A stretch of 64,000 nucleotides of DNA. Source: Dehalococcoidales bacterium. Its GTDB lineage: Bacteria; Chloroflexota; Dehalococcoidia; Dehalococcoidales; RBG-16-60-22. Position 1 is the stretch's first letter; the number at the start of each line of letters is the position of its first letter. The stretch lies in NCBI GenBank assembly GCA_034418415.1, contig DAOULS010000111.1, positions 1,157 through 65,156 on the forward strand, in the 5' to 3' direction. The translations under genes and the position numbers were made by a program. The notes under the pieces are model-generated. The model saw nothing but the letters and a program-made list of their open reading frames with translations, ran no database searches and was not told the DNA's origin. Shown here one piece after another: positions 6,780 through 52,183 of the stretch.

Positions 6780-6828
6780 AGAAAATCCCCGTTAGCCACT
6801 TAGTCGAAACATGATTAGCTTCCAAAGG

Positions 6829-6905: not shown

Positions 6906-7075
6906 ATGTGCTTCAAGTGTAATTCTAACAATTGAAAGCCCTCTCTGCAACCGTTATTAGTTATCTCGCCCTATTTGCTATTTTCAATACGCTGGTATAT
7001 CATTTTTTAAACGAGTCGCCAGAGCAAAAATGGTGCGGAAAATCCGGTAGCCCCCGCCGCCTGGCGTGATTTTTT

Positions 7076-8101: not shown

Positions 8102-9063
8102 TGAAAGAGACGATGAAGAACAGGCGTGTTCTGGTTACCGGCGGCGCTGGTGTTATCGGCCAGGAACTCTTACAGTTGCTAAGCGATAAACAGGCGGACG
8201 TCCTCTCGGTTGACCGCCGTCCCCTTTCCCGCGGCGAAAAACCCGGTGTGACTCACCTCCTTAAAGACCTGGCGGTAGATAGTCTGGACGAACTGGTTGA
8301 TTTTCAGCCGGAAATTATCTTTCACCTGGCGGCAACCTTCGAGCGCTCCAAGGAGTCCCCCGAATTCTGGAAGGACAACTGGCTGGATAACGTTTTGCTA
8401 AGCCACCGACTCTGCGAGCAGCTGAAAAAAATGCCCGACCTTAAGGTGCTGGTCTTTGCCTCCAGCTATCTGCTTTACTCGACCTCTCTGTATCTCTCAC
8501 CTTCGGTGCCGGGTAAAGTGACGTATCTTAAGGAGACCGACCCCGTTGTGCCCCGCAATCTCTGCGGTGCCGCCAAGCACTATACGGAGGGGGAAATCAG
8601 GTTCGTCAGGGAGGTGGAAAGTCCGTCGTTGCGTACCGTCGATGCCCGTATCTTTCGCGTTTACGGCTGCGGTTCTAAAGACGTGATTTCCCGGTGGGTC
8701 AGGGCGGCTCTTACCGGACAGGAAATCCGGGTGTATCATAAGGAGAACCGCTTCGACTATGTTTTTGCCGGCGATGTCGCTGCTGGACTGCTCAAATTAG
8801 CAGCAAGCCCTGCCGCCGCCGGCGCGGTAAACTTAAGCTGCGGAACGGCGCGCAGGGTTGAGGATGTCTTGAGTATTTTGCAGGAGCTTGTACCCGCCTG
8901 CCGCTCGAAAATAAAGTATATTGATGTAGATGAACTCTATGAAGCCAGTGGCGCCGATATATCCATGTTGAAAAAACTGACCGGTTGGACGCCGCCAACC
9001 GACCTTAAAAAAGGTATCGAGATACTGGTGGATTTTGAAAAAAGCAGGGAAAATAAATCATGA
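8101..9063 (+). CDS. NAD-dependent epimerase/dehydratase (extended SDR)
   Basis: VLVTGGAGVIG, IFHLAA, FASS, RIFRVYG. The catalytic YxxxK appears as LCGAAK. Confidence 0.85.
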   Translation: MKETMKNRRVLVTGGAGVIGQELLQLLSDKQADVLSVDRRPLSRGEKPGVTHLLKDLAVDSLDELVDFQPEIIFHLAATFERSKESPEFWKDNWLDNVLLSHRLCEQLKKMPDLKVLVFASSYLLYSTSLYLSPSVPGKVTYLKETDPVVPRNLCGAAKHYTEGEIRFVREVESPSLRTVDARIFRVYGCGSKDVISRWVRAALTGQEIRVYHKENRFDYVFAGDVAAGLLKLAASPAAAGAVNLSCGTARRVEDVLSILQELVPACRSKIKYIDVDELYEASGADISMLKKLTGWTPPTDLKKGIEILVDFEKSRENKS

Positions 9064-14965: not shown

Positions 14966-15138
14966 AAATGCTATCCTTTAGCTTGTAACGATGCTTGTAT
15001 ATTAATCAATTGTAATATATAATTCTATGTCCGAGCAAAAAATCGAGTTTGAAAAGACTTAGGAGGTAGAAGAATGTAGCAGTGGAACATCGTATTTCTC
15101 TGTGTTTTTTAAAAAAATCACAATTTGGAGGAAGGAAA

Positions 15139-16332
15139 ATGAAAAGGAGCTTATTTATAGCTGCAAATCTCGTACTTGTTTTAGCGCTGGTGTTGAGCTT
15201 CGGTATCGCCGGTTGTACCAGTGAAGAAGAGACCACACCGACGACCTCGACCCCCGCAACAACCTCGCCAGCGCCTACGACTACAACCCCGCCTGAAACC
15301 ACCACGCCCCCGGAGACCACCACGCCCCCGGAAACAACTACACCTCCGGAAACAACCACAACACCGCCAGCGGAACCTGTTGCTATTTCCTGGGAGGAAG
15401 CTGCCGATTATATCGGTGTGCTGGTTACGGTAGAGGGCCCGATTATCGATAAGTGGGATATCGGCACCGGCATGCTGCTCGGCATGGGAAAGAGCGCTGT
15501 GGAGGAAGGCACTGTCGGCATCGAAATCAGCTACGTCCTTGCGGCTGAACTCCCGGAGGATCTGTATGTCGGCCAGACGATTAAGGTAACGGGTACCCCG
15601 TATATCAATCCTCTCGGAGGTGCTTCTATTATTGTTTCTGACGCGTCCCAGATAGAAGCCATGGGACCGGCGCCTACTGAACCGGAACCCACCACTACCG
15701 AGCCGGAACCCACCGAGACAACAACGCCGCCTGAAGAAACCACGGAACCGGCGGGCGCAACTGTCTATGTCAGCGTCAGCGTCAACGGCGAACTGCTGGT
15801 TGCCGCGCAGCCCGTTACTGTCACTGAAATGACTGTCGAAGCCGTACTCATCGCCGCCCACGAGGCATTCTACGCTGACGGTCTGGAAGGCTATACGGCC
15901 GGTATTGACCCGACGTTCGGTATGTACCTCGTTACCCAGTGCTGGGGCATTCAAAACACTCCCTACATCATTATTAACGACGCCCCCCTCGGCTCATCGG
16001 GTATCGAAATCGTCAATACCACCTCGGTCGCTGCCAATGACAACATCATCATTTGTACGGGCACCACCACGAGTACAATTAGTCCGGTAGCTCTGACGGC
16101 AACCGTTTCCGGTGATACCGTGACTATCACGGCGACAGCCTGGACACTTAGCTTCGCGACATTCACGTATTCTTCTGCCGCTCTTGCCGGCGCGACTGTT
16201 ATTGACCCGACCACCGGCGAGGTCCTTGGTACCACGGATGAAAATGGCCAAATCACCATAACCATTCCGGCAAGCGGCATTGTTGCCATTGAAGGTATGG
16301 CGGCTATCAACGTTTTAGCCTCGGCCACATAA
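15139..16332 (+). CDS. Surface lipoprotein with Pro/Thr-rich linkers, an OB-fold-like domain and a C-terminal beta-rich domain
   Basis: Lipobox IAGC and PPETTT repeats. Start taken at the ATG at 15139 after GGAGGAAGG (track start 15082). Confidence 0.75.
   Translation: MKRSLFIAANLVLVLALVLSFGIAGCTSEEETTPTTSTPATTSPAPTTTTPPETTTPPETTTPPETTTPPETTTTPPAEPVAISWEEAADYIGVLVTVEGPIIDKWDIGTGMLLGMGKSAVEEGTVGIEISYVLAAELPEDLYVGQTIKVTGTPYINPLGGASIIVSDASQIEAMGPAPTEPEPTTTEPEPTETTTPPEETTEPAGATVYVSVSVNGELLVAAQPVTVTEMTVEAVLIAAHEAFYADGLEGYTAGIDPTFGMYLVTQCWGIQNTPYIIINDAPLGSSGIEIVNTTSVAANDNIIICTGTTTSTISPVALTATVSGDTVTITATAWTLSFATFTYSSAALAGATVIDPTTGEVLGTTDENGQITITIPASGIVAIEGMAAINVLASAT
15288..15370 (+). repeat. Imperfect 18-nt coding tandem repeat (about 4 x PPETTT)
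   Basis: ccgcctgaaaccaccacg / cccccggagaccaccacg / cccccggaaacaactaca / cctccggaaacaaccaca. Confidence 0.85.
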
Positions 16333-16518: not shown

Positions 16519-17442
16519 GTGCCCGAGCTTAAATACGCAAACTGTCTGGTGCAAACCCCCGCCCCCTTCCCCCTGGAACTGCAGGGAAAAGATGGGGGCA
16601 TGGCAAAAGACCCCGTCCCGGGTGTGCAAACGACCCATGTCCTGACGGCGGATGAAAGCGAGCAAAAAGGTTTTTTCTTCGTTGACGGCATGTGGTTGTG
16701 GGGCGGTGCGTCCAGGGAGCCCGTCGGTGTTCCGCACAAGCATGATTTCGACCATGTACTCTGCTTCGCCGGCGGCCATATCGATGACCCGCAGGATTTC
16801 GGTGCTGAAATAACCGTCTGGCTGGACGGTAATAAAGAGGTTATCAGGCGTAACAGTATCATCTTTGTACCGGCGGGAGTCGTCCACGGACCGATACTCT
16901 TCAATCGAATCCCCCGCCCGGTCTTTTTCCTCACCGTCGCCATTACCGGCAAATACTCAAGGACCGTCGTCCCGCAGGTCGCTAAACCTGCCAAGGAAAA
17001 GAAGTACACCATCGTGGACGAGCTTTACAAGAGCTTCACCGTAGCCGCCGATAAAAATGCGCCCCCGCCTCCACCGCCGAACCCCAATCTAAAAGGGGCT
17101 CGTATCATGCATATTGAGGCGGATAGAGTTCCGGGTGCGTTTTACGTCGACTTCGTCTGGATATTCAAAGGCACCGGTGCCGCGCCGGCAAAGGTGCACG
17201 ACCATGACTGGCCGGAGCTCATTGCCATGGCTGGAGCCGACCCCTCAAAGCCGCACGACCTTGGCGGCGAGATGTCGATTGTGCTCGGCGATGAAACTCA
17301 CGCGACGACCAAGAGTACCCTGGTCTGCATTCCGGCACATATGATGCACTGTCCGTGGGAATTTCATGATATCGAGACGCCCACTTTGGTCTTTACCGCC
17401 GGACCTTCTCATATGTACACCGGCTCGCATAAGAAAGATTAA
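16519..17442 (+). CDS. Bi-cupin protein, same family as 12944..13351
   Basis: Two repeats: PHKHDFDHVLCFAG..FGAEI..PAGVVHGP and VHDHDWPELIAMAG..LGGEM..PAHMMHCP. Confidence 0.75.
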   Translation: MPELKYANCLVQTPAPFPLELQGKDGGMAKDPVPGVQTTHVLTADESEQKGFFFVDGMWLWGGASREPVGVPHKHDFDHVLCFAGGHIDDPQDFGAEITVWLDGNKEVIRRNSIIFVPAGVVHGPILFNRIPRPVFFLTVAITGKYSRTVVPQVAKPAKEKKYTIVDELYKSFTVAADKNAPPPPPPNPNLKGARIMHIEADRVPGAFYVDFVWIFKGTGAAPAKVHDHDWPELIAMAGADPSKPHDLGGEMSIVLGDETHATTKSTLVCIPAHMMHCPWEFHDIETPTLVFTAGPSHMYTGSHKKD

Positions 17443-20782: not shown

Positions 20783-21895
20783 ATGGTTAATTGGAAAGAA
20801 AAGCTTAATGGGGATCCTATACCTTGGCTGCTGGAACACGACGAGACCCAGCCAGCCATTCGCTATTATGCCTTGCGTGATATCCTCGGCCGGGACGAGA
20901 ACGATAAAGAAGTCAAAGCTGCGAGAGCGGCTATCATGGCAAGCGGACCGGTGCCAGTGATCTTGGCGGCGCAGCATCCGGAGGGATATTGGGGAAAACG
21001 ACCCAGGTACACCGGGACGATGCCGGCTATCGTTTTCATGGCGCAGCTTGGGGCGGACGGAGCTGACCCGCGCATTCACGCAAGCTGTGAGATTCTGCTT
21101 TCCCGATACATCGACAGCAATGGTGCCCCTCTGGGTAGTCTGTCATTGAAAGGCACGCCTTCTGGTTCCAGCTATTGCACGGCGGGTATAATGGGGGCGG
21201 CTTTGATTGACTTCGGCTGGCTTGAAGACCAACGCTTGCAGGCAGTAATGGAATGGCTGGCACAGACTATTACCGGGGAAGGAGTGGCTGACACTTCGGA
21301 GCGCGATACAAACAAACGTTACGGTAGGTCTAGGAGTTCAGATCCTTCATTCGCCTGTCCACAGCGTAATGCTAATTTGCCATGCGCCTGGGGCGCAATA
21401 AAGGTGATGATTGCCTTGAACAAAGTACCAACGGCACAGCGAACCAGAAATATGCAGGAGGCTATCAAACGGGGTGTGGACTTTCTGTTGAGCCATGACC
21501 CGGCGGTCGCCGATTACCCCTTTGGCAAGGGGAACAGGCCTAGCTCAACCTGGTTCAAGTTCTATTATCCTCTCCGCAGCGAAGCCGATGTGCTTCAGAA
21601 CCTTGAGGTCCTGGCAGCGCTGGGGCAAGCCAAGAATCCCAAGTTAGCCAACGCGTTAGATCTGGTCATTAGTAAGCAAAACCAACAAGGACGCTGGTTG
21701 CTTGAACGTACCTACAAGGAGTTGGCGGACACACAAGAAAAGAAAGTCTTTTATTGGTACCAGAACTCCCTGAGACTTTATATAACCGGCAAGGAGTTGG
21801 CGGAGATACAAGAAAAGAAAGGTCAACCCAGCAAGTGGGTCACTCTGAGAGCTTTGCGTGTTCTGAAAGCGGCTTATCCAGGAGAACGGAGTTAA
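20783..21895 (+). CDS. (alpha/alpha)6-barrel prenyltransferase/squalene-cyclase-like protein, copy 1
   Basis: DPIPWLLE..PAIRY, QHPEGYW, CAWGAIK, QNQQGRW (QW-like), SKWVTLRALRVL. Confidence 0.7.
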   Translation: MVNWKEKLNGDPIPWLLEHDETQPAIRYYALRDILGRDENDKEVKAARAAIMASGPVPVILAAQHPEGYWGKRPRYTGTMPAIVFMAQLGADGADPRIHASCEILLSRYIDSNGAPLGSLSLKGTPSGSSYCTAGIMGAALIDFGWLEDQRLQAVMEWLAQTITGEGVADTSERDTNKRYGRSRSSDPSFACPQRNANLPCAWGAIKVMIALNKVPTAQRTRNMQEAIKRGVDFLLSHDPAVADYPFGKGNRPSSTWFKFYYPLRSEADVLQNLEVLAALGQAKNPKLANALDLVISKQNQQGRWLLERTYKELADTQEKKVFYWYQNSLRLYITGKELAEIQEKKGQPSKWVTLRALRVLKAAYPGERS

Positions 21896-24146: not shown

Positions 24147-25415
24147 GTGTATCCGATGACTTTAAAGGAGTATAATAGGTTCAGAAAAATAGTTGATGTT
24201 GATGATATGACAGAGACTCCTCAAGAAAAGCGTTCGTTGCCTGAAAAAGGTCTGTCCTCCGGACTCACATTGCAGCTCCTGCGCGCCAAAGCGAAAACAG
24301 GCTTCCGCAGTCCACATTTCTGGATAATCATCGGACTGTTTATCGTATTTACCTTCGTTTATTACTATCTGCTGGAGTCCTACAAGGACATATACATCAT
24401 TATTTTCTTTTATCCCCTGATATATGCTGCTATCGTCTACCGCATACGCGGAGTGGTTGTTACCGGGGTGGTCTTTCTCGGTATTCTGTTGCCGCAGGCG
24501 CTGGTGGTATCTCAAGACCCGGTATTTCTTGTCCGCACGCTAATTTTTGCCGCTTTCGCTTATCTTGCCGCCGCGCTGGGGGCCGTCCTCCTCAACTATC
24601 TGGAAAGTCAGCTGGAAGCCTACCAGGAAATCCTCTCTCTGAATGAAAAACTTAACGACTATATAGAGAAATTACATAAGACCCAGCAGCAGCTTATCCA
24701 GGCGGCCAAATTGAGTTCTCTCGGCCAGTTGGCGGCGGCGGTAGCCCACGAGCTGAATAATCCCCTGGCGGGAATACTGATTTATACCAGGCTAGCCAAA
24801 GAGAAAATCATCAAAGGCATTGTTGACAGGGAAAAACTGCAGACCAACCTGGAAAAGATAGAATCGGCCATCGAGTATTGTAACAGCATTATTCAGGGAC
24901 TGCTTGATTTCGCCCGCCAGACGGAGCCGCTGTTGCGTCCGGTTACCATAGGGAGGGCTGTCGATAAAGCCATGTCTTTGGCGGGACACCAGATAAAGAT
25001 GAAAACAATCGAGGTTTCCCGTGCGGATGACCCGTCGTTATCGCTGGTGGTGGCGGACTTTAATCAGCTGGTGCAGGTTGTTATCAACCTTATACTTAAC
25101 GCCGTTCAGTCCATGAAAGAAGGCGGCAGGCTTACCATCAACACTTCACAGGATGACAGTCTGGTGAAGATAGCTGTCAGCGACACCGGCAACGGCATAC
25201 CCCCGGAGAACATGGACAAGCTATTTACGCCGTTTTTTACGACCAAGGAAGATGTTAAGGGTGTGGGGCTGGGTTTAGCGATATCTTACGGCATCATCGA
25301 GCGCCACGGCGGCAGGATAGAGGTCCAGAGCGAAGTGGGCAGAGGCAGCACTTTTACCGTAATTCTACCGGCCTATCAGGGTGAAGAACAGCCCGAAGCA
25401 GGGACATCAGACTGA
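24147..25415 (+). CDS. Membrane sensor histidine kinase (HisKA + HATPase, NtrB-like)
   Basis: 4-5 TM segments; LGQLAAAVAHELNNPL, QVVINLILNA, DTGNGI, FTPFFTTK, GVGLGL. Confidence 0.9.
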   Translation: MYPMTLKEYNRFRKIVDVDDMTETPQEKRSLPEKGLSSGLTLQLLRAKAKTGFRSPHFWIIIGLFIVFTFVYYYLLESYKDIYIIIFFYPLIYAAIVYRIRGVVVTGVVFLGILLPQALVVSQDPVFLVRTLIFAAFAYLAAALGAVLLNYLESQLEAYQEILSLNEKLNDYIEKLHKTQQQLIQAAKLSSLGQLAAAVAHELNNPLAGILIYTRLAKEKIIKGIVDREKLQTNLEKIESAIEYCNSIIQGLLDFARQTEPLLRPVTIGRAVDKAMSLAGHQIKMKTIEVSRADDPSLSLVVADFNQLVQVVINLILNAVQSMKEGGRLTINTSQDDSLVKIAVSDTGNGIPPENMDKLFTPFFTTKEDVKGVGLGLAISYGIIERHGGRIEVQSEVGRGSTFTVILPAYQGEEQPEAGTSD

Positions 25416-25418
25416 TTC

Positions 25419-26831
25419 TTATTTGGCAATAGGTCTGGGTATATCTACGGTAAGTTCCGTGCCCCTATCCGGGACGGATTTTACATGGAGGGTGCCGTTT
25501 AGGAGGCGCGCCCGTTCGTGCATCCCCATCAGTCCCAACCGGCCAGCGCTGACCATCCCCTCGATTCTCTCGGGCGCTGTAAAACCTCGGCCGTCGTCGG
25601 TTACGGTCATCCGGATACTGTCATCTTTACTTTCCAGTTTAATAGACACCCTGGATGCACCGGCATGTTTCCTGATATTGTTCAGCGCTTCCTGGGCAAT
25701 CCTGAAAAGCAAAATTTGAGCTTCCGGAGATAGTGCTGTCTTCATATTTTTAGTTTCGACGTCGACCTGGATTTTCTGGTCTCTTTCCAGCCCTTCGGCA
25801 ATCCACTCGAGGGCTGCCACCAGCCCCAGGTCGTCGATTATACGGGGGCGCAGTCCCTGCGCCGTAGCGCGCAGTGACTCCAGGGCTTTGACCGCCTGTT
25901 CCCTCACCTCTTCGAGGTTGCTCCTTAGTGTCGCCAGCTTCGTCCGCGGTGCTGAAACAAGGTTATCCAGCTTTTGAATGAGGATGATGATATCGGGAGA
26001 TACATCGTCATGGAGGTCGCGTGCGATGCGCTTACGTTCCTCTTCCTGCGTCCGAGTTATCTGCTGGAGGTAAGCCCGCACGTTTTCCTCCTGAAGTTTT
26101 TCCTGCGTAACGTCCCTGGCCACATGCTCGAAACCGGTTATCCTGCCCCCGGATACTACCGCATTGGTGGACATCTTTACGGTCCTTATCACGCCGCCTT
26201 TGATGAAAAACTGCTGCTCGTAGGGCTGTTCGAACTCCTCCCCGTTTATCAGCTTGGTCCGTACCTCACGGGCCAGCGCCAGAGAATCTTCGCTTAAAAA
26301 ACGCGCTAGGTGTATCCCCTTCAGTTCATCCGCGCTAAACCCGGTCATTTTCTCAAAGGCGCGGTTGCCGTCCACGAAAAAGCCGTTGACATCCTGCACC
26401 CAGATAGCGTCGCTGGCATGCTCGAATAAATAGCGGTATTTCTGCTCCGAGACGCTCAAGCCACGCTCGGACTCCTCTAACTTGGTAATCAGTTGCTGGT
26501 ACTGCAATCCCCGTTTTCGGTAAGCTTCAATCCAAAAATTTACCAGCAGCCCTACGATGACGACTACGGTACTCTCCAGTATAGCGTCGGCTTTATATTC
26601 GGAAAGTGTAATAATGCGCGGTATGATTACAGCCAGACTTAATCCTAGGGTAGCAAGTCCGATTCGTAAACCGAAGATATAACCGGCGTAGATAATCGGC
26701 ACCAGGAACAGCACCCGTTCCACGCCGTGCCGGGATAGACCCCAGAAAGATAGCAGGGAAGGAGAATCTATCTGTAATATCTGCTGGGGGTAATGAAAGA
26801 TAATGCCGATGATGAACATTGCCACCAGCAC
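25419..26831 (-). CDS. Membrane PAS sensor histidine kinase (HisKA_3, NarX/DegS-like)
   Basis: EEERKRIARDLHDD, LRPRIIDDLGL, RIAQEALNNIRKHA, DDGRGF, GLMGMHER. The N-terminus may extend to 26888. Confidence 0.9.
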   Translation of the reverse strand: MLVAMFIIGIIFHYPQQILQIDSPSLLSFWGLSRHGVERVLFLVPIIYAGYIFGLRIGLATLGLSLAVIIPRIITLSEYKADAILESTVVVIVGLLVNFWIEAYRKRGLQYQQLITKLEESERGLSVSEQKYRYLFEHASDAIWVQDVNGFFVDGNRAFEKMTGFSADELKGIHLARFLSEDSLALAREVRTKLINGEEFEQPYEQQFFIKGGVIRTVKMSTNAVVSGGRITGFEHVARDVTQEKLQEENVRAYLQQITRTQEEERKRIARDLHDDVSPDIIILIQKLDNLVSAPRTKLATLRSNLEEVREQAVKALESLRATAQGLRPRIIDDLGLVAALEWIAEGLERDQKIQVDVETKNMKTALSPEAQILLFRIAQEALNNIRKHAGASRVSIKLESKDDSIRMTVTDDGRGFTAPERIEGMVSAGRLGLMGMHERARLLNGTLHVKSVPDRGTELTVDIPRPIAK

Positions 26832-26927: not shown

Positions 26928-27590
26928 TTATTGTATGTCGTTGAGGTCGATGTAACCCTGTTTCAGTCCCTTGATGATAGCGTCGGTGCGGCTGCTGCAG
27001 CCGAGTTTGTTAAAGATATTGGTCATGTGGGCTTTCACGGTACGCAGGCTGATAAAGAGTTTTTCCGACATTTCTTTATTGCTTAGTCCCCTTGAAGCCC
27101 ATTTCAATATCTCCATCTCTCTGGAAGTAAGCTGGCCGCCGGCTTCGTGTTCACCCTCGGTTTTTGATATATTGGCCAGTCTCTGCACGAGCTTGCGGGT
27201 TACCTCGGGGTCGAGGACGGATTCGCCGGAACGCACGGCGCGTATGGCCTTCACTACATCCTTGCCCGGTGAGTTTTTCAATAGGTACCCGCAGGCCCCG
27301 GCTTCAAGTAGTCCGATGATATAGCGGATATCACTGTAGGCTGTCAATATTAATAACGCCGTGGAAGGGGAGACCTGCTTGATTTGCTTGGTAGCTTCCA
27401 CACCGTTAAGCCTGGGCATAACTATATCCATGATAACGATGTCCGGTTTGAGTTCTTTGGCTATTTGAACGGCTTCCTCGCCGTCAGTTGCCTCTCCCAC
27501 CAGCTCGAAGTCTTTTTCCTGCTCGAGCAGGTTTCGCATACCTTCCCGCAGCATGGCGTGGTCATCGGCAATTAATATCCTGGTTTTCAT
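26928..27590 (-). CDS. NarL/LuxR-family response regulator
   Basis: ADDH, MDIVMP, GYLLK, LTSRE..IL...GLSNKE...TVKAH. Confidence 0.95.
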   Translation of the reverse strand: MKTRILIADDHAMLREGMRNLLEQEKDFELVGEATDGEEAVQIAKELKPDIVIMDIVMPRLNGVEATKQIKQVSPSTALLILTAYSDIRYIIGLLEAGACGYLLKNSPGKDVVKAIRAVRSGESVLDPEVTRKLVQRLANISKTEGEHEAGGQLTSREMEILKWASRGLSNKEMSEKLFISLRTVKAHMTNIFNKLGCSSRTDAIIKGLKQGYIDLNDIQ

Positions 27591-27773: not shown

Positions 27774-28094
27774 ATGAAGATAGATACAGGAGTGAGAGGG
27801 TGCGGAAGCAGCGTGAGGAATAGAAAAGATATAAATCGATTGAGTCAAGAAGAAGCAGCCAAGAAGAAAAAAGCCATTCTTACCGCGCTTACTAAAGCCT
27901 CTGAAGATTATCTTTCATCTAAAGGGCGCGATGACGCTTTTGATGGTGAGCCTGATGATTACTACACGCTCTCCCGCGATGAGATGGAAGCACTCGTTAA
28001 CGGCGATATTAAAAAAATAGAAAACTGGGTCAGCAATATGGACAGGAAACACGCCACCCATTTATTGCGCTGGCTCATTAAGGAAAGATGGTAA
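27774..28094 (+). CDS. Hypothetical protein
   Basis: 106-aa ORF filling the gap between the regulator and acs; no motif recognised. Confidence 0.55.
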   Translation: MKIDTGVRGCGSSVRNRKDINRLSQEEAAKKKKAILTALTKASEDYLSSKGRDDAFDGEPDDYYTLSRDEMEALVNGDIKKIENWVSNMDRKHATHLLRWLIKERW

Positions 28095-28160
28095 AGGGAG
28101 GGTAATATACCCACCCTTTTATTATTATTCGCTGCATATTAGCAGGAATAAGAAAAGGAG

Positions 28161-30581
28161 ATGAACAAAATGGTTGAGAGTAAAAGAGTACTGATTGCGG
28201 ATGATGAAAGTATCGTGAGAGATTCGCTGGCTGACTGGCTGACTGACCACGGTTATGAGGTCGTTACCGCCGCCAACGGTGACGAAACGGTGGAGAAGCT
28301 CAATGAGAATGATAATCTGGGTGTTGTTGTCCTTGACGTACGCATGCCCGGTAAAGATGGCATCTCTATCCTGGAGGAGACCAGGCAGCATCACCCCGAC
28401 CTTAAATACATCATTATCAGCGGCTATCCGTCCGTGGATGTCATGAGCCGGGGCATCAGACTGGGCGCTGTTGGTTTCCTGGTAAAGCCCTTTAACCCTG
28501 AAGAACTGGAAAAAATGGTAAAGCACGCCATATATGGTAACGGGGATGTTCAGGCCATCACTTCGGAGGAAGAGGCCGAAAGGTCCGAGGCGGATATGCT
28601 CGGACAGATTTCCGGCAAAGAAATAGCCTCTATGATGGCGGAGAACCGTGTGTTCGAGCCTTCTCAAGAATTTTCCGGCGTGGCGGCTATCCGCAGCCTT
28701 GAAGAATACAAAGCCCTCTATAACTGGTCGGTAAAGGACCCGGAGGGATTCTGGGGCCAGATGGCAAACCAGCTGGACTGGTTTAAGAAGTGGGACAAGT
28801 TCCTGGAATATGATTTTAAAGACAAACCTGAAATACGCTACTTTATCGGCGGTAAAATCAATGTCAGCTATAACTGCCTTGACCGACACCTTAATACATG
28901 GAGGAAAAACAAAGCTGCCCTTATCTGGCAGGGTGAGCCGGATGATGATACTCGCGTCTATACTTACCAGCAGCTGTTCCGCGAGGTATGTAAATTCGCC
29001 AATGTTCTGAAAAAGCACGGCGTCAAGAAAGGCGATACCGTTTCCATCTACCTGCCCATGATTCCGGAGCTGGCTATATCCATGCTGGCCTGTGTGCGTA
29101 TCGGCGCTATTCACAGCGTGGTCTTCGGAGGTTTCAGCGCCGAGGCCCTGCGCGACCGGATTCAGGACTGCGGCTCGAAGGTGCTCATCACCGCTGACGG
29201 CTACTGGCGTAGCAGCAAGCAAATCGGTAGCAAGGTCAATGCCGATAACGCTCTTAAGGAATGCCCGACCGTCCAGAAAACCATTATCGTGAAACGACTT
29301 GGCATTGAAATCCCGATGCAGGCGGGCAGGGACTTATGGTGGCACAATGAAATGGACGCTCCGGATATCTCTTCCGTCTGTGAAGCTGAAAAAATGGATG
29401 CCGACGCGCCTCTGTTTATCCTCTATACCAGCGGCAGTACCGGCAAGCCCAAGGGTGTTCTCCACACGCAGGGAGGCTATCTTCTGCACTGTTACCAGAC
29501 CATGAAATGGATATTTGATACTAAAGACGAAGATACATACTGGTGTACCGCGGATGTCGGCTGGGTTACCGGCCACAGCTATATCGTTTACGGTCCCTTG
29601 GCTATCGGTGCCGCCAGTCTCATGTTCGAAAGCGTGCCTACCTACCCCGCCCCCGACAGGTTTTGGCAAATCGTGGAAAAATTCGGCGTAAACGTATTCT
29701 ATACCGCCCCCACCGTTATCAGGGCTTTGATGAGAGAGGGCGAGGAATGGCCGAATAAGTATAATCTTTCCAGTCTTAGACTCCTTGGCAGCGTCGGTGA
29801 GCCAATTAATCCGGAAGCCTGGATGTGGTACCACCGCGTTATCGGCAAGGAAAAATGCCCTATCGTTGACACCTGGTGGCAGACGGAAACCGGTGGTATC
29901 CTCATTACTCCCCTCCCCGGCGCCATCCCCACTAAACCTGGCTCTGCAACCCTCCCGTTCCCGGGCGTCGAGCCGATAATCTTGAGGGAAAACGGGACCG
30001 AAGCCGGCATCAACGAGGGCGGCTGGCTCTGCATCAAGAAACCCTGGCCGGGCATGATGCGTACTCTCTGGGGCGACCCGGAACGGTTTAAACTGACTTA
30101 CTTCTCTAAATTCCCCGGCTACTACTGCACCGGCGACGGCGCTCGGAAGGACCTGGATGGCTATTACTGGCTTATGGGTCGTATCGACGACGTAATTAAT
30201 GTATCCGGACATCGTATCGGTACTGCCGAGGTTGAAAGCAGCCTTGTCTCCCATCCCAAGGTAGCCGAGGCCGCCGTAGTCGGTATGCCGCACAAACTGA
30301 AAGGCCAGGGCATCTATGCCTACGTTACCCTCAAGACCGGCGTAACCGTGACTCCGGACATGGAGAAAGAACTCAAGACCCATGTGCGTCAGCAAATCGG
30401 CCCGATTGCCACCCCGGACGTTATTCAGATGGCTGACGGCCTACCCAAGACGCGCAGCGGTAAAATCATGCGGCGTATCCTCGTGAAAATTGCCGCCGGC
30501 GACACCGGCAACCTGGGTGATACCTCCACCCTCGCCGACCCATCGGTGGTGCAGACGCTATTGGCGGGCAAGAAGTCATAA
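28161..30581 (+). CDS. acs: Acetyl-CoA synthetase (AMP-forming) fused to an N-terminal receiver domain
   Basis: REC: [21 protein letters not shown]. Acs: [62 protein letters not shown]. Confidence 0.92.
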
Positions 30582-30593
30582 AAACCCTGTGCG

Positions 30594-30630
30594 ATAACGG
30601 CCGGGGCAGGGAATCCTCCCCGGTCGTTTG
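30594..30630 (+). terminator. Hairpin after acs
   Basis: aacggccgggg ... ccccggtcgtt followed by tgttgtatt. Confidence 0.55.
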
Positions 30631-30635
30631 TTGTA

Positions 30636-31238
30636 TTGAACTATATTATTTGGAGGTATTTCGTGTCACAAATCTCGGCTAAGGAAGAACCGCAATGGGC
30701 AAACCCGGGCGCTCTAGGCCTGGCGGCGTTCGGGTTCAACACTGTCCTGCTCCAGATTCATAATATCGGCTGGATAGACAGCTACATGCCCCTTATTTAC
30801 GGCATCTTCTGGGGAGGTATCGCCCAGATAATCGCTGGTGTCATCGACGGAAAGCGGGGCGATACCTTCGGACTGACCGCTTTCGTGTCCTACGGTGCGT
30901 TCTGGATAGGTATCGCAATGGCTTTCGTTTTCCAGTGGACCGGCGTTGTTACGCTGGATAGTACCGGTCTAGCTTGGACGTTCATCATGTGGGGTATATT
31001 CACTGCCTTCATGATGGTCGGCACGCTAAAGATGACCTTCGTGCATTTCTTCGTGTTCGCCTCGCTGGTGGTGCTTTTTGCCCTCCTGGCGGCACACAAG
31101 TTCGGCGTTATCTCGGCTGTACCTGCTGGCATCGAGGGGCTCTTCTGCGGCGCGGCAGCGGCTTACGGCGCGGCGGCGGTCATCATCAACGGTAAGTTCG
31201 GGCGAGCTGTCCTTCCTATGGGAAGAATGTTCAAATAA
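30636..31238 (+). CDS. satP: GPR1/FUN34/YaaH (SatP) acetate/succinate transporter
   Basis: WANPGALGLAAFG, GGIAQIIAG, DTFGLTAFVSYGAFW. The start may be the GTG at ~30663. Confidence 0.9.
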   Translation: MNYIIWRYFVSQISAKEEPQWANPGALGLAAFGFNTVLLQIHNIGWIDSYMPLIYGIFWGGIAQIIAGVIDGKRGDTFGLTAFVSYGAFWIGIAMAFVFQWTGVVTLDSTGLAWTFIMWGIFTAFMMVGTLKMTFVHFFVFASLVVLFALLAAHKFGVISAVPAGIEGLFCGAAAAYGAAAVIINGKFGRAVLPMGRMFK

Positions 31239-35578: not shown

Positions 35579-36496
35579 TTGGCTAAAGAAGTCCTCGACT
35601 GGCTGCTGGAAGGATCTGCATGGCTCAAGTATGCCGTCGAACTCCAATTGCTTGACCAAAAACCAGGAACAGACACGGCACTTAAGGATAATTCTATCCG
35701 GAAAATCATCTCCCGAATCAAAGGCAATGACGTCGGCATACCCGCCATAAAGTCGGGCAGGGTGCATTACACGGAGGCAGGCAAGGCTTATTGGGACCTG
35801 TTTTTCCTAGCGGACATCGGGCTGACGGTAAAAGATGCCGGCCTTGAAGCGGAAGCGGAAGAAATCTTTAAATTTCAGTCGCGCGACGGCACCTTCACCA
35901 TGCCTCCTAACGTACAGGATAACTATTTCTGTATGTCGGCGATACTTATCGCCTCGCTGGCGAAGATGGGCTATCGCGACGACCCGCGGGTGATAAAATA
36001 TATCCGCGCCGCGATGGGCACCCAGATGCCGGGCGGCGGTTGGGACTGCTACGGCGACAGTTACGTGATTGGGGATTCCTGCCCGATGGACGACATGAAT
36101 ATCCTGATGCTGCTGGGGCAATACCTCGATTACCGCAATAACCCCGGACTCTACGGTGCTATTGATAACCTGCTGACGCACTGGCAGGAAAGAACTCATC
36201 TTTACGGATTTGGGGTAGGTAAACGCTTCCGCAGCCTGCAGTATCCGGCGGTAAAGTACGGCATCCTGCGGGTATTGGATGTGCTTTCGTTTTTTCCTTA
36301 CGCTGTTAAAAGTCCGGCCTTTCAAAACATGCTGGACTGCGTACACGCTAAAATTGCTGACGGACGTTATTTTGCCGAAGCTGCTGATATGGTTTATACT
36401 GATTTTGACTTCAGCCAGACCAGAGAGCCCAGCCGCTGGATTACGTTTCTTGTGAGCAGAATTGATAAAAGGATTGAAAGTATCCAATCAGGTTAA
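35579..36496 (+). CDS. (alpha/alpha)6-barrel prenyltransferase/squalene-cyclase-like protein, copy 2
   Basis: VLDWLLEG..WLKY, QSRDGTF, QMPGGGWDC, LQYP..KYGILRVLDVL, PSRWITF. TTG start. Confidence 0.7.
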   Translation: MAKEVLDWLLEGSAWLKYAVELQLLDQKPGTDTALKDNSIRKIISRIKGNDVGIPAIKSGRVHYTEAGKAYWDLFFLADIGLTVKDAGLEAEAEEIFKFQSRDGTFTMPPNVQDNYFCMSAILIASLAKMGYRDDPRVIKYIRAAMGTQMPGGGWDCYGDSYVIGDSCPMDDMNILMLLGQYLDYRNNPGLYGAIDNLLTHWQERTHLYGFGVGKRFRSLQYPAVKYGILRVLDVLSFFPYAVKSPAFQNMLDCVHAKIADGRYFAEAADMVYTDFDFSQTREPSRWITFLVSRIDKRIESIQSG

Positions 36497-46975: not shown

Positions 46976-49900
46976 CTATCTCTTTTTCCTCGTCAACAAC
47001 CTGCTTAAAAGTTCTCGAAGTTGTTTTACGCTGTAAGGCTTGGCGATAACAGCCTTAAATCCATATTTCCTATAGTCGGACATAATCGGGTCGGTAGCAT
47101 AACCGCTGGACACGATTACGGTAGCTTGAGGGTCTATTTCCAGTAGCTTTTTTACCGCTTCTTTGCCGCCCATGCCTCCCGGAATGGTCAGGTCCATGAT
47201 AACGGCATTAAACGGGTCTCTTGCCTTTTTTGCCTGCTGGTATTTTTCCAGAGCTTCAACTCCGTCAGCTGAAACCTCCACTATGTAGCCGGCCATTCCC
47301 AACATATTCTTCAGCATTTTCCTGATTACTTCTTCGTCGTCCATTATCAATATCTTGCCGCCCGCCTGCCTGGATTCCTCGACTGTCAATTTTTTAGCTC
47401 CTTTCAATGCTTTTTTCGTCGCCGGCAAATAAATATGGAAACTCGAGCCTTTATTTTGTGTGGATTCTACGAGTATAGCGCCGTTGTGGTTCTTGACCAC
47501 GGAATATGCCGTCGTCAGTCCCAGTCCGCTTCCTCTCTGTTTGGTGGTGAAATAAGGCTCGAATATACTCTGGAGTTGTTCACGGGACATGCCTATCCCC
47601 GTGTCTGTGATATCTACACGGATATAGTTGCCTCCTCGGAGAGGCAAAGCATCACTTTTCTTTACAGCCTGGTTTACGGCGCTGATTTTTAGTCTCCCGC
47701 CAATCGGCATGGCTTCATCGGCGTTAATAACCAGGTTGTTAATGACCTGGCTGATTTGCCCCTCGTCAGCTTCTATCGGCCACAATTCATCTGAAAAAGA
47801 TAATTCCAGCTTGACCTTAGAACCTCTCAAAGCGAACTCGGCGGATCCTTTAATTAGATCGGCGGCGTTAACCAGTTTCTTCAACGGTTTACCGCCTTTA
47901 GCAAAGGTTAAAAGCTGCTGTGTCAGGTCTCTGGCTCGTACCGCAGCTCCTTCCGCTTCGTCAAGCATCTCATAAGTGGGGTCGGAGGAGGAAATATATG
48001 TCTTTACCAGGCCGATGTTTCCCATGATGCCCGTCAGAAGGTTATTAAAATCGTGCGCGATGCCACCCGCCAGCATTCCGATTGTTTCCATCTTGGCCAT
48101 ACGCAATCGCTCCTGCTCCTGCAATTCATTAGCGGCCACTAATTCCATATCGCGGAGAGCGAAAGCTATATCCATGGCAACCTCGTCAAAGAGGGAAATT
48201 TCCTCTGTATCCTGTATCAATTTCTTGGATATTGAAGCGCACAGGATACCATAGTTTTTCCCTTCTATTTCCAGCCTGACGGTCATACTTCCAGTGTCGG
48301 CGTTGCCACATTGCGTCGGGCAACCCTTGCAGGCTTTTAACTGGTCTTCGGTTATTACCACTTGCTTGTTACTTAACGCCTTCTTAACGCATTGGGGTAT
48401 TTCCCCTTGTTTCAACGATTCAATCAAAGCAGGGAACTCCTTGTTCATATTCGCCCCGGCCCAGATAACAGGCTGCTGGTTCTCATCGAGCAGGACAATC
48501 CAGGTGCTTATAAAACTCCGGCTCTCCACCAGGCTGTCGCAGACTTTCTGGATAAGCAGACTGCGGTCCTTCTCCCGGGTAATCAACTGGTCGACGTTAC
48601 GTACGGAACGCAGCATGAGGTTGAGATGGTTGATTCTTTCTTCCGCCTCTTTTCTCTCCGTTATATCCAGCGCCGATACTACCAGGCATTTAATACCACG
48701 CAGCATTATTTGTTCTGCGGAAAACAGAAGCGTCCTGATTTCACCGGATTTAGTACGCATCAATATCTCAAAGTCCTTTAGCCGTCCCTCGGTATTAATT
48801 ATGTTGTAAAATTCCCTTCGCTGTTCCGGGTTAAACCATAAATTAAGCTCAAGTGTAGTCTTACCGATGATTTCCCGTCGCTCATAGCCGGTTATACGTG
48901 TATGTTCTGCATTAGCGTCGATGAACCGCCCTTCATCCATTGTAAGGACGGATCCCAGATTAGGAGAGGCATGAAAAGCTTTGTTGAACCTCTCCTCGCT
49001 TTCTTTGATAACCTCCTCGGCACGTTTCCGCTCGGTTATATCCAGTATCGTTGCAGTGATACCCTTGGAAGGGTCATCGGGGTCAAGGGGGGCCGAGTTT
49101 AGTATTACATTCAGGGCAGTTCCATCTTTATGTCTTAAGCGGGTCTCGAGGGTGCCGGTTCCCGTAGCAGTCATCTGACTATATATTTTACCTGCGTACT
49201 CATATTCTTCGTTGCTGTTGTATACTATTTGTGACGATTGGCCGAGGAGTTCATCGCGCGTATAACCTACCATTTCACAGAACCCCTCGTTTACTTCGGT
49301 GAAAGTACGGTCAACCAGCACGACGATACCTATGGGGGCCACACTGAAAATAGAACTCACTCTATCCTCGCTAGCCTTGCGAGCCTCCTCCGCCTCTTTC
49401 TGCTCGGTGATATCTTGAGCGAAACCTACCAGGCCGATTACTTTGCCGTCATTATCTAAAATGGGGATTTTATCCGTTTGCACCCATCTCATTCCTGCGG
49501 CAGACTCGTATTGTTCTAAGATGTTCAACTTGGGGTGTCCTGTAGTGAAGACCTCTCGGTCGTCGTTTGACATGCCTTGTGCGATGTCTTTTGAAAATAG
49601 GTCAAAAACTGTTTTCCCTAATAAATCTTTCTCGGCCATATTCAAAGCTGTTGCCATAGCCTTATTGATCCGTAGGAATTTACCCTTTAAATCCTTATAA
49701 AATACCAGAATTGGGGCTGAATCGATTATCAGCTTTATTTCCTCACTATCTCTCTCCAGCTGCTCTTCCATTCTTTTCCGTTCGGTGGTATCTCGGATTA
49801 TCATGCTGGTTCTGGCTTTGCCGTCCTTATCGTAAAATACCTTGCTGGATAATTCGATGGGAAATTTGGTTCCGTCGGCACGAACGCCGATAAGATCTCC

Positions 49901-52183
49901 GGAAAACTCACCGGTCGCCTTACGTTTTTCAAGTGCTTTTTCCAGCCGGGGGTCGGCTACATCGATTACACCGCCTCTTCCAATGCGGCAGATGTCCTCC
50001 TCACTCCTCCCGAACATCCGGCAAGCTTCAGGATTTGCCGCTAAAATTCCTCCATCCAGGGATGTCAGCAGGATGGCATCTTTGCTGTTTTCAAAAATCA
50101 GACGGTACCTCTCCTCGGACTCCTGCAGGGCTTTCTCTGCTTTCTTCTGCTCGGTAATATCAGAAAAAGTGGTATAGACCCGATAGGGGATTGTTTCCCC
50201 CTCTCTGAATTCCGGAATGGCGCTAACTAAAATCCATTTATGTTCGTTAATTTTTGGATTAAAAACTCCCATAACTACGTTTTCCACGGCTTTACCGGTG
50301 CGTAGCGCCACCATTGAGGGGTGTTCTTCGCCGGGGAAATCGGTACCGTTTTCATATATGCTTTTCCAGCGCGGGTCTGTTGATGTCCTGCCTAATATCT
50401 GGTCTATAGACAGCCCCAGAATACGTTGCGCCGCCGGATTAGCGGATATTATCTTTCCGTCAGCTAACTGATATATAACACCCTGCGCCATTGTCTCGAA
50501 CAGGCTGCGGAACCTTGTCTCACTCTCTTCTAGTGCATCTTCCGCCTGCTTCCGCTCGGTAATATCTGATGCAATCGATATTAGATACGGCTCTTCTTTC
50601 AGGGTAATTTTTGCTATAGATAGACTAAACGTCCGTATTTCTCCCGATTTTGCTCTGAATCTCACCTCGGCATTTGATACTGCCCTTCTTTTTTCCAACG
50701 ACTCTGCCATCGACCCTCTTTGCTTGGGGTCGTGCCACAAATTTAATTCGAGAGTTGTATGGCCGATTAGTTCCTTACGGCTGTATCCCGTAGCCTGGCA
50801 ATATGCATCGTTTACTTCAATTATTTGGCCTTCCTTTAGCGTTGAAATTAACATCAGGTTGGGAGAATCGCGGAATGCCAGCGAAAACATCTGCTGGCTT
50901 TCTTTCAGCGCCTCCTCTGCCTGTTTCTGCTCGGTGATGTCCCTTTGTACGGAAAGAAGGCATTTCTTATTGCCTATTAGAATGGGTTCAGCGGAATACT
51001 CCCAGGTGCGTATTTCGCCCGATTTGGTGCGGAATTGATATACTTCCTGGCTTACCCTACCGTTCTTTTCAAGTGATTGTTGTATTTTGGCGCTGTCTTC
51101 CGGGTTGACCCAGAGGTTTAGCTCGAGTGTGCTGTGCTCTATCATCTCATTTAGGGAATAACCCGTGTTTTTAACGGCGGCATCATTAGCATCGATGATA
51201 ATACCATCGTCGAGTGTGATAATCATCACAGCGTCGGGACTGGAACGGAAGGCTTTAGAAAACATCTCCTCCGTCTGTCTAAGCGCGTCATACATTTTTT
51301 TCCTGTCAGTTATATCCCGCACGATGACTATATCAATCAGTTTTTGTCTGAAATTAATCAGATTGGCGCTTATCTCTGTATGTACCGTAGTGCCGTCTCT
51401 GGATATAATATCCAGCTCGTACCGGTCCGGTACTTTCATGCCGGCAACTCTTTGCTTGTACATCTCCGCGGCATTGTTTTTTTGTTCCGGCACGATGAAA
51501 TCGATAAACGGTTTGTCGATCAACTCTTCCATAGCATAACCGGATATTTCCAGCATTTTTGAATTACAATATCGGATAAGTCTGTCTTCGATATAAACAA
51601 TGCCGTCATTGCCCTGCTCGACGAGGCTGTGATATTTTTCCTCGCTATCTTTCAGCGCTGCCTCGACCCTTTTTCGCTCTGTAATGTCTTCGTACATGGC
51701 CATGTACTGCTTTTCTCCACCCCACATTACCTCCCGGCGGAATACCATCAGGTTTCTCACCTCTCCGTCAGGCCGTCTGATGCCAAGTTCATATTCTCCA
51801 GGAACATGCTCATTTAGTTTTCGTTTCCTCTTTCTTTCCTGGAAGGCAGCATAACTCTCTGGCGTATAAAGGTCGCTCTTTTTGACCGCCGCCAGCTCTT
51901 CTACCGTCTTATACCCGAAGATATCCAGGGCTGCTTTATTGGCATAAATCAGGTCGCCATCCTCCGTCACGATGCGAACCCCCAGCGGGCAGGTATCCAT
52001 AGAATTCTTGAAGTTCCGTTCAGAGGCAAGGTAGGCCTGGGCCAGGTCGATGGTATCTACGTCAGGTATATTGTTATCGCCTCCAGCAGCATTTTTCACA
52101 GTCTGCTGGAATTTGCCCAGAAGTTCTTCGACCTTCGTCAATCTTTTTTTAAGTTCTTCATAAGTAGGTTTTTTAATTTTCAT
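46976..52183 (-). CDS. Cytoplasmic hybrid histidine kinase: 9 PAS + GAF + HisKA + HATPase + REC
   Basis: Nine PAS units ending in DITE/DTTE; AGGIAHDFNNLL; GSGLGL; C-terminal ILIMDDEE..IMDLTIPGG. Confidence 0.92.
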   Translation of the reverse strand: MKIKKPTYEELKKRLTKVEELLGKFQQTVKNAAGGDNNIPDVDTIDLAQAYLASERNFKNSMDTCPLGVRIVTEDGDLIYANKAALDIFGYKTVEELAAVKKSDLYTPESYAAFQERKRKRKLNEHVPGEYELGIRRPDGEVRNLMVFRREVMWGGEKQYMAMYEDITERKRVEAALKDSEEKYHSLVEQGNDGIVYIEDRLIRYCNSKMLEISGYAMEELIDKPFIDFIVPEQKNNAAEMYKQRVAGMKVPDRYELDIISRDGTTVHTEISANLINFRQKLIDIVIVRDITDRKKMYDALRQTEEMFSKAFRSSPDAVMIITLDDGIIIDANDAAVKNTGYSLNEMIEHSTLELNLWVNPEDSAKIQQSLEKNGRVSQEVYQFRTKSGEIRTWEYSAEPILIGNKKCLLSVQRDITEQKQAEEALKESQQMFSLAFRDSPNLMLISTLKEGQIIEVNDAYCQATGYSRKELIGHTTLELNLWHDPKQRGSMAESLEKRRAVSNAEVRFRAKSGEIRTFSLSIAKITLKEEPYLISIASDITERKQAEDALEESETRFRSLFETMAQGVIYQLADGKIISANPAAQRILGLSIDQILGRTSTDPRWKSIYENGTDFPGEEHPSMVALRTGKAVENVVMGVFNPKINEHKWILVSAIPEFREGETIPYRVYTTFSDITEQKKAEKALQESEERYRLIFENSKDAILLTSLDGGILAANPEACRMFGRSEEDICRIGRGGVIDVADPRLEKALEKRKATGEFSGDLIGVRADGTKFPIELSSKVFYDKDGKARTSMIIRDTTERKRMEEQLERDSEEIKLIIDSAPILVFYKDLKGKFLRINKAMATALNMAEKDLLGKTVFDLFSKDIAQGMSNDDREVFTTGHPKLNILEQYESAAGMRWVQTDKIPILDNDGKVIGLVGFAQDITEQKEAEEARKASEDRVSSIFSVAPIGIVVLVDRTFTEVNEGFCEMVGYTRDELLGQSSQIVYNSNEEYEYAGKIYSQMTATGTGTLETRLRHKDGTALNVILNSAPLDPDDPSKGITATILDITERKRAEEVIKESEERFNKAFHASPNLGSVLTMDEGRFIDANAEHTRITGYERREIIGKTTLELNLWFNPEQRREFYNIINTEGRLKDFEILMRTKSGEIRTLLFSAEQIMLRGIKCLVVSALDITERKEAEERINHLNLMLRSVRNVDQLITREKDRSLLIQKVCDSLVESRSFISTWIVLLDENQQPVIWAGANMNKEFPALIESLKQGEIPQCVKKALSNKQVVITEDQLKACKGCPTQCGNADTGSMTVRLEIEGKNYGILCASISKKLIQDTEEISLFDEVAMDIAFALRDMELVAANELQEQERLRMAKMETIGMLAGGIAHDFNNLLTGIMGNIGLVKTYISSSDPTYEMLDEAEGAAVRARDLTQQLLTFAKGGKPLKKLVNAADLIKGSAEFALRGSKVKLELSFSDELWPIEADEGQISQVINNLVINADEAMPIGGRLKISAVNQAVKKSDALPLRGGNYIRVDITDTGIGMSREQLQSIFEPYFTTKQRGSGLGLTTAYSVVKNHNGAILVESTQNKGSSFHIYLPATKKALKGAKKLTVEESRQAGGKILIMDDEEVIRKMLKNMLGMAGYIVEVSADGVEALEKYQQAKKARDPFNAVIMDLTIPGGMGGKEAVKKLLEIDPQATVIVSSGYATDPIMSDYRKYGFKAVIAKPYSVKQLRELLSRLLTRKKR

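Follow-up and report, generated by a model that had tools for sequence, protein, structure and literature searches.

Acetyl-CoA synthetase (Acs) is a textbook enzyme under transcriptional control and reversible lysine acetylation control. Among response regulators, CheB shows how a receiver can govern an enzyme: the unphosphorylated receiver restrains the catalytic domain, and phosphorylation relieves the restraint. Here we describe a gene that places a receiver and Acs in one polypeptide, which we call REC-Acs. It lies in a 64,000-nucleotide stretch of the genome of a Dehalococcoidales bacterium (Chloroflexota; assembly GCA_034418415.1, contig DAOULS010000111.1, positions 1,157 to 65,156 of the forward strand), referred to as the window in its whole length. 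A single open reading frame (ORF) there encodes a canonical receiver (REC) domain, a flexible tether and a complete AMP-forming acetyl-CoA synthetase, 806 amino acids in all.

REC-Acs shares with CheB, PleD and RpfG an N-terminal receiver, a flexible linker, a C-terminal catalytic domain and a canonical phospho-acceptor pocket. Of these, CheB comes nearest to it in logic. The difference is in the output, which in REC-Acs is an adenylate-forming enzyme of central carbon metabolism (ANL superfamily), whereas CheB-type outputs are signaling enzymes. Judged by its sequence and predicted structure, REC-Acs has the architecture of an enzyme-output response regulator, with receiver and enzyme in one polypeptide and a flexible linker between them. 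We found no description of a receiver with an acetyl-CoA synthetase, acyl-CoA synthetase or AMP-binding output in the searchable full texts, and no solved structure contains both REC and Acs. This agrees with an earlier note on this DNA, made from the letters of the sequence, whose author knew of no characterized REC-Acs. The fusion is a conserved response-regulator architecture that has apparently not been described before.

Two described systems control Acs in related ways. Like REC-Acs as proposed here, Pat/AcuA with CobB/AcuC exerts post-translational on/off control of Acs, and its target lysine (in SGKIMRR) is present in the fusion. However, Pat/CobB senses acetyl-CoA/NAD+ status by acetylation (PMC11255334), whereas REC-Acs would receive the signal of a membrane kinase through a different chemistry. 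CrbS/CrbR (MctS/MctR) provides two-component control of acs or monocarboxylate transport through a LuxR/NarL-type regulator (PMC5436829, PMC5715377). As in CrbS/R and MctS/R, a LuxR/NarL-type regulator in the window is divergent from acs, and there are MctR/ErdR-like and MctS-like matches below cutoff. In contrast, the reach of CrbS/R is limited to transcription and its kinase has SLC5 and STAC domains, while in the window enzyme and receiver form one protein. Pfam detected SLC5 or STAC in neither of the two window kinases (HK1 and HK2, below), and the regulator scores below both the ErdR cutoff (78.4 bits vs 390) and the MctR cutoff (152.4 vs 300), so that it is placed in the NarL family with its subtype undefined. 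A CrbS/CrbR-type system is ruled out on these grounds.

The closest enzymes of known structure lack the receiver. Chloroflexota AcsA (PDB 8RPK/8RPL) is ~50% identical to the Acs module of the fusion and has the same fold and catalytic motifs; neither it nor Salmonella enterica Acs, which also shares this fold, has an N-terminal receiver. The crystal of the unfused Chloroflexota AcsA contains a phosphorylated His476, a residue that the authors state is not conserved (PMC11255334); a counterpart in the fused family, if there is one, might conceivably donate phosphate to the receiver. One functional contact between Acs and a receiver is documented, namely Acs-dependent acetylation of CheY (PMC2883070, citing Barak et al. 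1992 and 2004). In that case Acs and the receiver are two proteins, and the receiver does not regulate but is itself modified, by acetylation instead of phosphorylation.

Architecture of the fusion protein

The features of the fusion gene are as follows, with residue numbers referring to the 806-residue version throughout.

28161..30581, + strand: REC-Acs fusion gene, 806 amino acids from ATG 28161; 803 amino acids from ATG 28170 is likelier
28188..28523, + strand: REC domain, residues 10-121 (Pfam PF00072, 94.1 bits vs a cutoff of 30.2)
28335-28337, + strand: codon of the phospho-acceptor Asp59, within the REC domain
28533..28619, + strand: variable, predicted-disordered tether, approximately residues 125-153 (from column entropy and model confidence)
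28578..28655, + strand: N-terminal extension of this Acs subfamily, which also begins the unfused relatives
28626..30572, + strand: complete AMP-forming Acs module (PRK00174 and TIGR02188 above cutoff)
30462-30464, + strand: codon of the catalytic Lys768, in the SGKIMRR motif

Pfam places Response_reg at residues 10-121, ACAS_N at 183-239, AMP-binding at 244-637 and AMP-binding_C at 690-768, all above their gathering thresholds, and the NCBIfam models TIGR02188 (1001.8 bits vs a cutoff of 724.95) and PRK00174 (1043.8 vs 657) recognize the enzyme. The earlier note had described an 806-residue ORF that joins a complete REC domain to full-length Acs, and these matches bear it out. An AAGGAG box at 28155-28160 abuts ATG 28161 with no gap and stands 9 nucleotides before ATG 28170. 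Among 77 fused proteins (the query included), 36 start at the second ATG and 35 at position 1. Because of the 9-nucleotide spacing and the 36 starts at the second position, the product is probably the 803-residue protein that begins at ATG 28170. Scans for promoters and terminators gave no signal above the shuffled expectation.

The receiver appears to be phosphorylatable, as every residue needed is present and conserved and all the sequence evidence points to a functional domain. The earlier note had recognized the acidic pair, the phospho-acceptor aspartate, the serine and the lysine. These residues are D14 (kept in 72 of the 77 fused proteins), D15 (76/77), D59 (75/77), S/T87, which is serine in the window protein (77/77), and K109 (75/77), and to them we add F/Y106, the aromatic switch (77/77). 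Helix alpha1 (IVRESL.DWL) and the start of alpha4 (YPSV) are among the best-kept REC segments in the fused proteins. In receivers, alpha1 is the usual kinase-docking surface and the start of alpha4 is part of the usual output face. The nearest relatives of the fused receiver are receivers of the NtrX/NtrC/AtoC/FixJ type. Estimates of dN/dS are ~0.03-0.19 for REC vs 0.04-0.07 for Acs, and although dS is saturated in most pairs and the values are rough, they are clearly below 1. By this measure, the REC part is under purifying selection. REC evolves ~2.9 times faster than Acs, and the distance matrices of the two parts co-vary (Spearman 0.66).

An AlphaFold2 model of the full protein (alignment of 76 sequences; predicted template modeling score 0.74) has a canonical (beta-alpha)5 REC at a predicted local distance difference test score (pLDDT) of 82-92 and a confident Acs body. 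Residues 125-150 fall below pLDDT 50, matching the high sequence variability of the tether, where column entropy is 2.4 bits vs 0.5 for Acs and mean identity is 29%. The model therefore predicts a flexible tether of ~25 residues. Part of what precedes the catalytic domain is not specific to the fusion. Unfused Dehalococcoidales Acs proteins (669-677 amino acids, ~80% identical) start ~20 residues upstream of the position of M158/M159. Because of this, residues from ~140 onward are, on sequence grounds, the older N-terminal extension of this Acs subfamily, of which outgroup phyla have a shorter version. Since the extension is older, the fusion added the receiver and a variable tether of ~15-25 residues.

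The Acs module appears catalytically intact and acetate-specific. The core motifs of the ANL superfamily are present, as is the catalytic lysine for adenylation, all of them invariant across the family, and the models for propionate- and acetoacetate-CoA ligases score below their own cutoffs on the fusion protein. The module is 55% identical to S. enterica Acs (PDB 1PG4/2P2F), with an identical SGKIMRR motif. The acyl-pocket segments GWVTGH, GSVGEP and WWQTETGG are the same in both enzymes. We take V310/T311, V386 and W414 of the S. enterica enzyme to be the residues of an acetate-sized acyl pocket. The earlier note had pointed to the retained SGKIMRR lysine as an acetylation site. The residue is indeed present, but in every Acs it serves as the catalytic lysine (K609 in S. 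enterica), and therefore its retention is uninformative about acetylation control.

Distribution and ancestry of the fusion

Whether the fusion is conserved was a question raised by the earlier note. A protein homolog search covering 5.8 billion proteins (JGI, ENA, NCBI and Logan assemblies) recovered the same four-domain architecture in at least 76 clusters, at 66-94% identity and with lengths of 790-805 amino acids. All named fused homologs belong to Chloroflexota, Dehalococcoidia or Dehalococcoidales, and the source databases label them merely "acetate--CoA ligase". Among GTDB species representatives, the fused form occurs only in L008-L012 (handles of this kind denote the loci compared with the window), all of the same lineage. 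A metagenome scan added at least one further fused locus among the matches listed, and also brought up L161 and L167, to which we return below. When REC, linker and ACAS_N were used together as a query for fusions in other phyla, the best 150 representatives were mostly multi-receiver proteins, and the Acs part appeared only in fragments of the same family.

In an outgroup-rooted neighbor-joining tree, the fused proteins form a basal grade within which unfused Dehalococcoidales clades are nested; the internal branches are short and carry no support values. Because the fused proteins are basal and the unfused clades nested within them, the tree suggests one old fusion followed by later losses of the receiver. 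The closest unfused gene that we inspected (L002) has no REC ORF upstream. Its upstream gene encodes an epimerase, which for this locus rules out a REC that persists as a separate ORF ahead of a close unfused relative.

Two more distant loci do encode a receiver and Acs as neighboring genes, the only cases of a stand-alone REC beside an unfused acs among ~70 unfused loci.

L077 (Dehalococcoidales), 4028-8648, all on one strand: kinase, stand-alone REC, Acs and SatP
L047 ("Deltaproteobacteria" bin), 1-2494: stand-alone REC directly upstream of acs

The L077 operon consists of an ortholog of the window kinase HK1 (41% identity), the stand-alone REC, unfused acs and a SatP channel. Each of its genes has a strong Shine-Dalgarno box, and a TAA stop and 137 nucleotides separate REC from acs. 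The split genes of L047 likewise each have their own ribosome-binding site. Because every gene has such a site, L077 and L047 are genuine split versions, a "Rosetta stone" counterpart that supports a functional link between receiver and Acs and speaks against an artefact. The earlier note had held that relatives with separate REC and Acs genes would count against the fusion. Many relatives keep the single ORF, and the separate arrangement is found in these two distant loci. The receiver of L077 is PleD/PhoB-like, and for that reason its association with Acs probably arose independently.

Other Acs proteins bear different N-terminal additions. An Acs in L046 (Thermodesulfobacteriota bin, 3397-5718) carries an unrelated N-terminal domain of ~130 residues, and one in L068 (2-2797) a Lys/Ala/Pro-rich, histone-H1-like extension of ~300 residues. 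The Acs N-terminus seems to tolerate fusions. Separately, a NiFe hydrogenase cluster beside REC-Acs in L003 (517-5261) encodes a single-domain REC and a 775-residue protein in which REC is fused to Fe-S/FAD/NAD-binding domains, a further case in this lineage of a receiver joined to an enzyme.

Candidate kinase, proposed mechanism and rival explanations

The genes that flank the fusion in the window and bear on its function are the following.

24147..25415, + strand: HK1, an orphan membrane histidine kinase with an N-terminal multi-helix membrane module followed by HisKA and HATPase_c
25419..26831, - strand: HK2, a PAS + HisKA_3 (+ HATPase_c) kinase, MctS/UhpB-like below cutoff, paired with the NarL-type regulator
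26928..27590, - strand: REC + GerE (NarL/LuxR-type) regulator, divergent from the acs cluster
27774-28094, + strand: small conserved ORF between the NarL-type regulator and REC-Acs, 106 amino acids, or 93 from GTG 27813
30636..31238, + strand: acetate channel of the AceTr/SatP family (AceTr_1, 163.7 bits vs a cutoff of 50; Pfam Gpr1_Fun34_YaaH)

The earlier note had singled out the kinase at 24147-25415 as lacking an adjacent cognate regulator. HK1 does have HisKA and HATPase_c domains and no regulator gene of its own adjoins it, and comparison with other loci adds that its orthologs go with the fusion. An HK1 ortholog adjoins the fusion in six of the eight contexts with usable flanks (the window counted); beside unfused acs it occurs only in L077 among ~70 loci. 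Identities, with the membrane module included, are 71% in L001, 64% in L008, 62% in L009, 57% in L010 and 44% in L003. The ortholog lies nearby in L001, L008 and L009 and directly downstream of the fusion in L010. In L003 it precedes the fusion on the same strand, and a second PAS-HisKA kinase intervenes. HK1 is thus specifically co-conserved with the fusion and is the candidate cognate kinase. Its best matches, all below cutoff, are AtoS, ZraS and FixL, and a kinase of this kind and an NtrC/AtoC/FixJ-like receiver would be of compatible classes. A comparison of the kinase DHp region with receiver alpha1 gave no co-variation signal; both are simply conserved.

A complete HK2/NarL-type regulator pair, overlooked in the earlier note, lies on the - strand between HK1 and acs and is convergent with HK1. 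Orthologs of the regulator (88-90% identical) occupy the same position in L001, L008 and L009. HK2 is present in L009, L010 and L077 and absent from L001 and L008, which are otherwise syntenic and in which the NarL-type regulator has no kinase beside it other than the HK1 ortholog. As an observation on their own, the N-termini of the two kinases (24147-24670 and 26500-26831) are multi-helix membrane modules. That of HK1 has no family match and that of HK2 has a faint DUF4118-like one (E = 0.17), neither N-terminus reaching significance, and the two are weakly similar to each other (26% over 39 residues).

We propose, and on balance consider somewhat probable, that REC-Acs is an enzyme-output response regulator built like CheB, in which Acs activity is modulated by aspartate phosphorylation via HK1. 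The membrane kinase would phosphorylate Asp59 of the receiver, and phosphorylation would shift the alpha4-beta5-alpha5 face and alter Acs activity. The receiver could release or impose a contact within the molecule, to the catalytic body or the mobile C-terminal domain; alternatively, the route could be receiver-driven dimerization. Acetate/acetyl-CoA flux would then be switched within seconds, jointly with the AceTr/SatP channel encoded alongside. Transcription of the cluster is probably controlled as well, by the NarL-type regulator, a layer absent from the earlier note, so that the locus may be controlled at two levels. What the analysis shows is the architecture with its conservation under selection, intact phospho-site and catalytic residues, a flexible tether and the specific co-occurrence with HK1; phosphotransfer from HK1, any effect on catalysis and its sign are inferred. 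Direct two-component control, the reading of the earlier note, is plausible, and it is strengthened because HK1 co-occurs with the fusion and because of the split operon of L077.

Several observations weigh against this proposal. The AlphaFold2 model of the full protein has no REC-Acs docking geometry, hence it backs no structural mechanism. Unfused close relatives of this Acs function without any receiver. The stand-alone receiver of L077 belongs to a different receiver subfamily, which makes that arrangement analogous rather than orthologous. L007 has a PAS-HisKA kinase instead of an HK1 ortholog, with a catalytic core 50% identical, and the L005/L006/L012 lineage has a NiFe hydrogenase upstream and no kinase within 8-10 kb. 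Because of these loci, the kinase partner is either not universal or encoded elsewhere. Finally, since HK2 is missing from L001 and L008, HK1 may serve the NarL-type regulator instead of, or besides, REC-Acs.

Other explanations assign the receiver a different role. It could determine where and with whom Acs acts rather than how fast, either by recruiting the enzyme to the kinase or to the SatP/FNT (formate/nitrite family) channel, possibly via the NHLP-like protein encoded by the small ORF (a metabolon for importing or exporting acetate), or by targeting it for degradation, as the adaptor-type receivers RssB and CpdR do for their targets. The long disordered tether would suit a docking domain, the cluster has conserved membrane partners in HK1 and SatP, and the module of the small ORF, conserved ahead of acs, also occurs in fusions, with channel tails as well as with REC near acs. 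However, SatP is absent beside the fusion in L003, L007 and L010, and the small ORF also accompanies unfused Acs, so the receiver is not required for that association; we regard this explanation as unlikely but worth keeping in view. Quite unlikely, in our estimate, is a reverse flow of information, in which the receiver acts as a sink for phosphate or as a feedback sensor and the ligand state of Acs (acetate, ATP, CoA, acetyl-AMP) tunes how much phosphate reaches the NarL-type regulator. Branched pathways with one kinase and two receivers, including sink receivers, are established in other systems, HK1 adjoins two receivers, and L001 and L008 have no other kinase nearby. This explanation does not account for a full, catalytically conserved enzyme where a small sensor domain would do, and L005/L006/L012, with neither NarL regulator nor kinase nearby, keep the receiver intact. 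The same three loci are what speaks for a receiver that takes its phosphate mostly from a small metabolite, acetyl phosphate for example, in a kinase-free feedback onto Acs, as they keep the phospho-site though no kinase is near, and many receivers do autophosphorylate from acetyl phosphate. With HK1 co-conservation favoring a kinase partner in most lineages, and no pta/ackA among the window ORFs scanned, we consider it improbable.

Chemistry other than phosphorylation can also be imagined. The receiver could be a substrate of its own Acs, its lysines acetylated through acetyl-AMP in an acetylation rather than a phosphorylation circuit. The Acs-dependent acetylation of CheY (PMC2883070) is a documented precedent, and K109 is conserved. 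Yet every receiver keeps K109 for the chemistry of phosphorylation, the strictly conserved acidic pocket, T/S and aromatic switch and the associated kinase point to phosphorylation, and the same source attributes in vivo CheY acetylation in E. coli mainly to autoacetylation. We therefore hold an acetylation circuit to be very improbable. Scarcely credible is a non-functional fusion, whether an artefact, a decaying pseudo-receiver or an enzyme made only from an internal start, even though unfused relatives ~80% identical exist and the tether is poorly conserved. A single ORF common to at least 76 independent clusters rules out an assembly artefact or lost stop codon, and a REC dN/dS well below 1 with intact catalytic residues contradicts a decaying pseudo-receiver. 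An internal start at MMAENR, which the earlier note had named as a way for its reading to fail, is ruled out as well, since no Shine-Dalgarno box precedes M158/M159 and the unfused relatives begin ~20 residues further upstream.

If control of REC-Acs by HK1 is real, it would be a third and faster route of Acs control, with a sensor kinase acting directly on an adenylate-forming enzyme of central metabolism, and response-regulator outputs would extend beyond DNA binding and signaling enzymes. For these Dehalococcoidia, which are uncultured anaerobes, acetate is important either as a carbon source or as a product of fermentation, and such a switch may govern when it is imported or released in the sediments and aquifers. 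As a soluble single-chain protein with an easy enzymatic read-out, REC-Acs would be an attractive model for transmission from a receiver to a large catalytic domain, and possibly an engineering part for kinase-controlled acetyl-CoA supply.

The small upstream ORF, the acetate channel and other neighbors

The small ORF upstream of REC-Acs, on which the earlier note is silent, belongs to a family of 85 homolog clusters, mostly of 93 amino acids, all labeled "hypothetical" and none with a Pfam domain. Its C-terminus is highly conserved (...YYTLSRDEMEALVNGD..KIE.WVSNMDR.HA..LLRWLIKERW). A profile built from the small ORFs matches ahead of Dehalococcoidales acs genes, fused as well as unfused, and the ~80-residue module also occurs as the C-terminal tail of FNT channels beside acs. 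Copies lie at the following positions.

L001 7621-7920, L008 9627-9920, L009 5400-5633, L013 3809-4114, L014 9634-9921, L015 9624-9866: small-ORF copies upstream of acs
L112 7728-9119, L117 8524-9942, L018 13019-14380, L098 13112-14377: FNT channels with the module as tail

The module is, in addition, the tail of molybdopterin oxidoreductases that adjoin the HK1-type kinase (L008 5222-7093, L009 3-1331), and it is fused to a receiver in L161 and L167 (profile E = 2-5x10^-7). The Os1348 model of the NHLP clan matches the window ORF at E = 0.07 and an FNT-tail copy at E = 3.8e-7 (30.1 bits vs a cutoff of 40), while Pfam Frankia_peptide stays below cutoff on the small ORF. We regard the module as undescribed and weakly NHLP-clan-like, a resemblance only. 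AlphaFold2 predicts four helices for the small ORF at pLDDT 65, and a fold search with this model returned no match (best E = 7).

The gene order in L161 (4182-12984) is REC-module, sCache_3/HAMP/HisKA kinase, cNMP-binding protein, GNAT acetyltransferase, unfused Acs, SatP, kinase and single-domain REC. From this order, with its REC and kinase genes and its cNMP-binding and GNAT genes, one acs appears to be flanked both by a two-component system and by a split acetylation system of the Pat type (cNMP + GNAT). Three pairwise links are found in all: receiver and Acs fused, receiver and module fused, and module and Acs adjacent. The existence of all three hints that receiver, module and Acs work together. 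A wider scheme of modular post-translational control of short-chain carboxylates can be drawn from this, in which a membrane kinase phosphorylates the receiver, be it part of an Acs fusion, stand-alone or carried by a small NHLP-like helical adaptor, and the adaptor couples channel, kinase and enzyme into a phosphorylation-gated acetate/formate metabolon. We consider this scheme doubtful as it stands.

The earlier note had placed satP after the fusion, and the AceTr_1 match of the downstream ORF agrees. The channel probably begins at GTG 30663, which has GGAGG 7 nucleotides upstream and gives 191 amino acids as in homologs, and not at TTG 30636. SatP lies downstream of the fusion in L001, L005/L006/L012, L008 and L009, and is also part of the split L077 operon. 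The window neighbors include LUD/CCG lactate-utilization genes and a class-I fumarase, and relatives have NiFe hydrogenases. Such a gene context fits either direction, the uptake of acetate or its formation by Acs running in reverse, which occurs in other anaerobes. The window ORFs scanned included no GNAT or sirtuin gene. Five window ORFs of 305-511 amino acids (15082-16332, 16519-17442, 20783-21895, 35579-36496 and 61308-62843) had no Pfam match at E <= 1e-5, and the window also contains an ORF of 1735 amino acids at 46976-52183 on the - strand.

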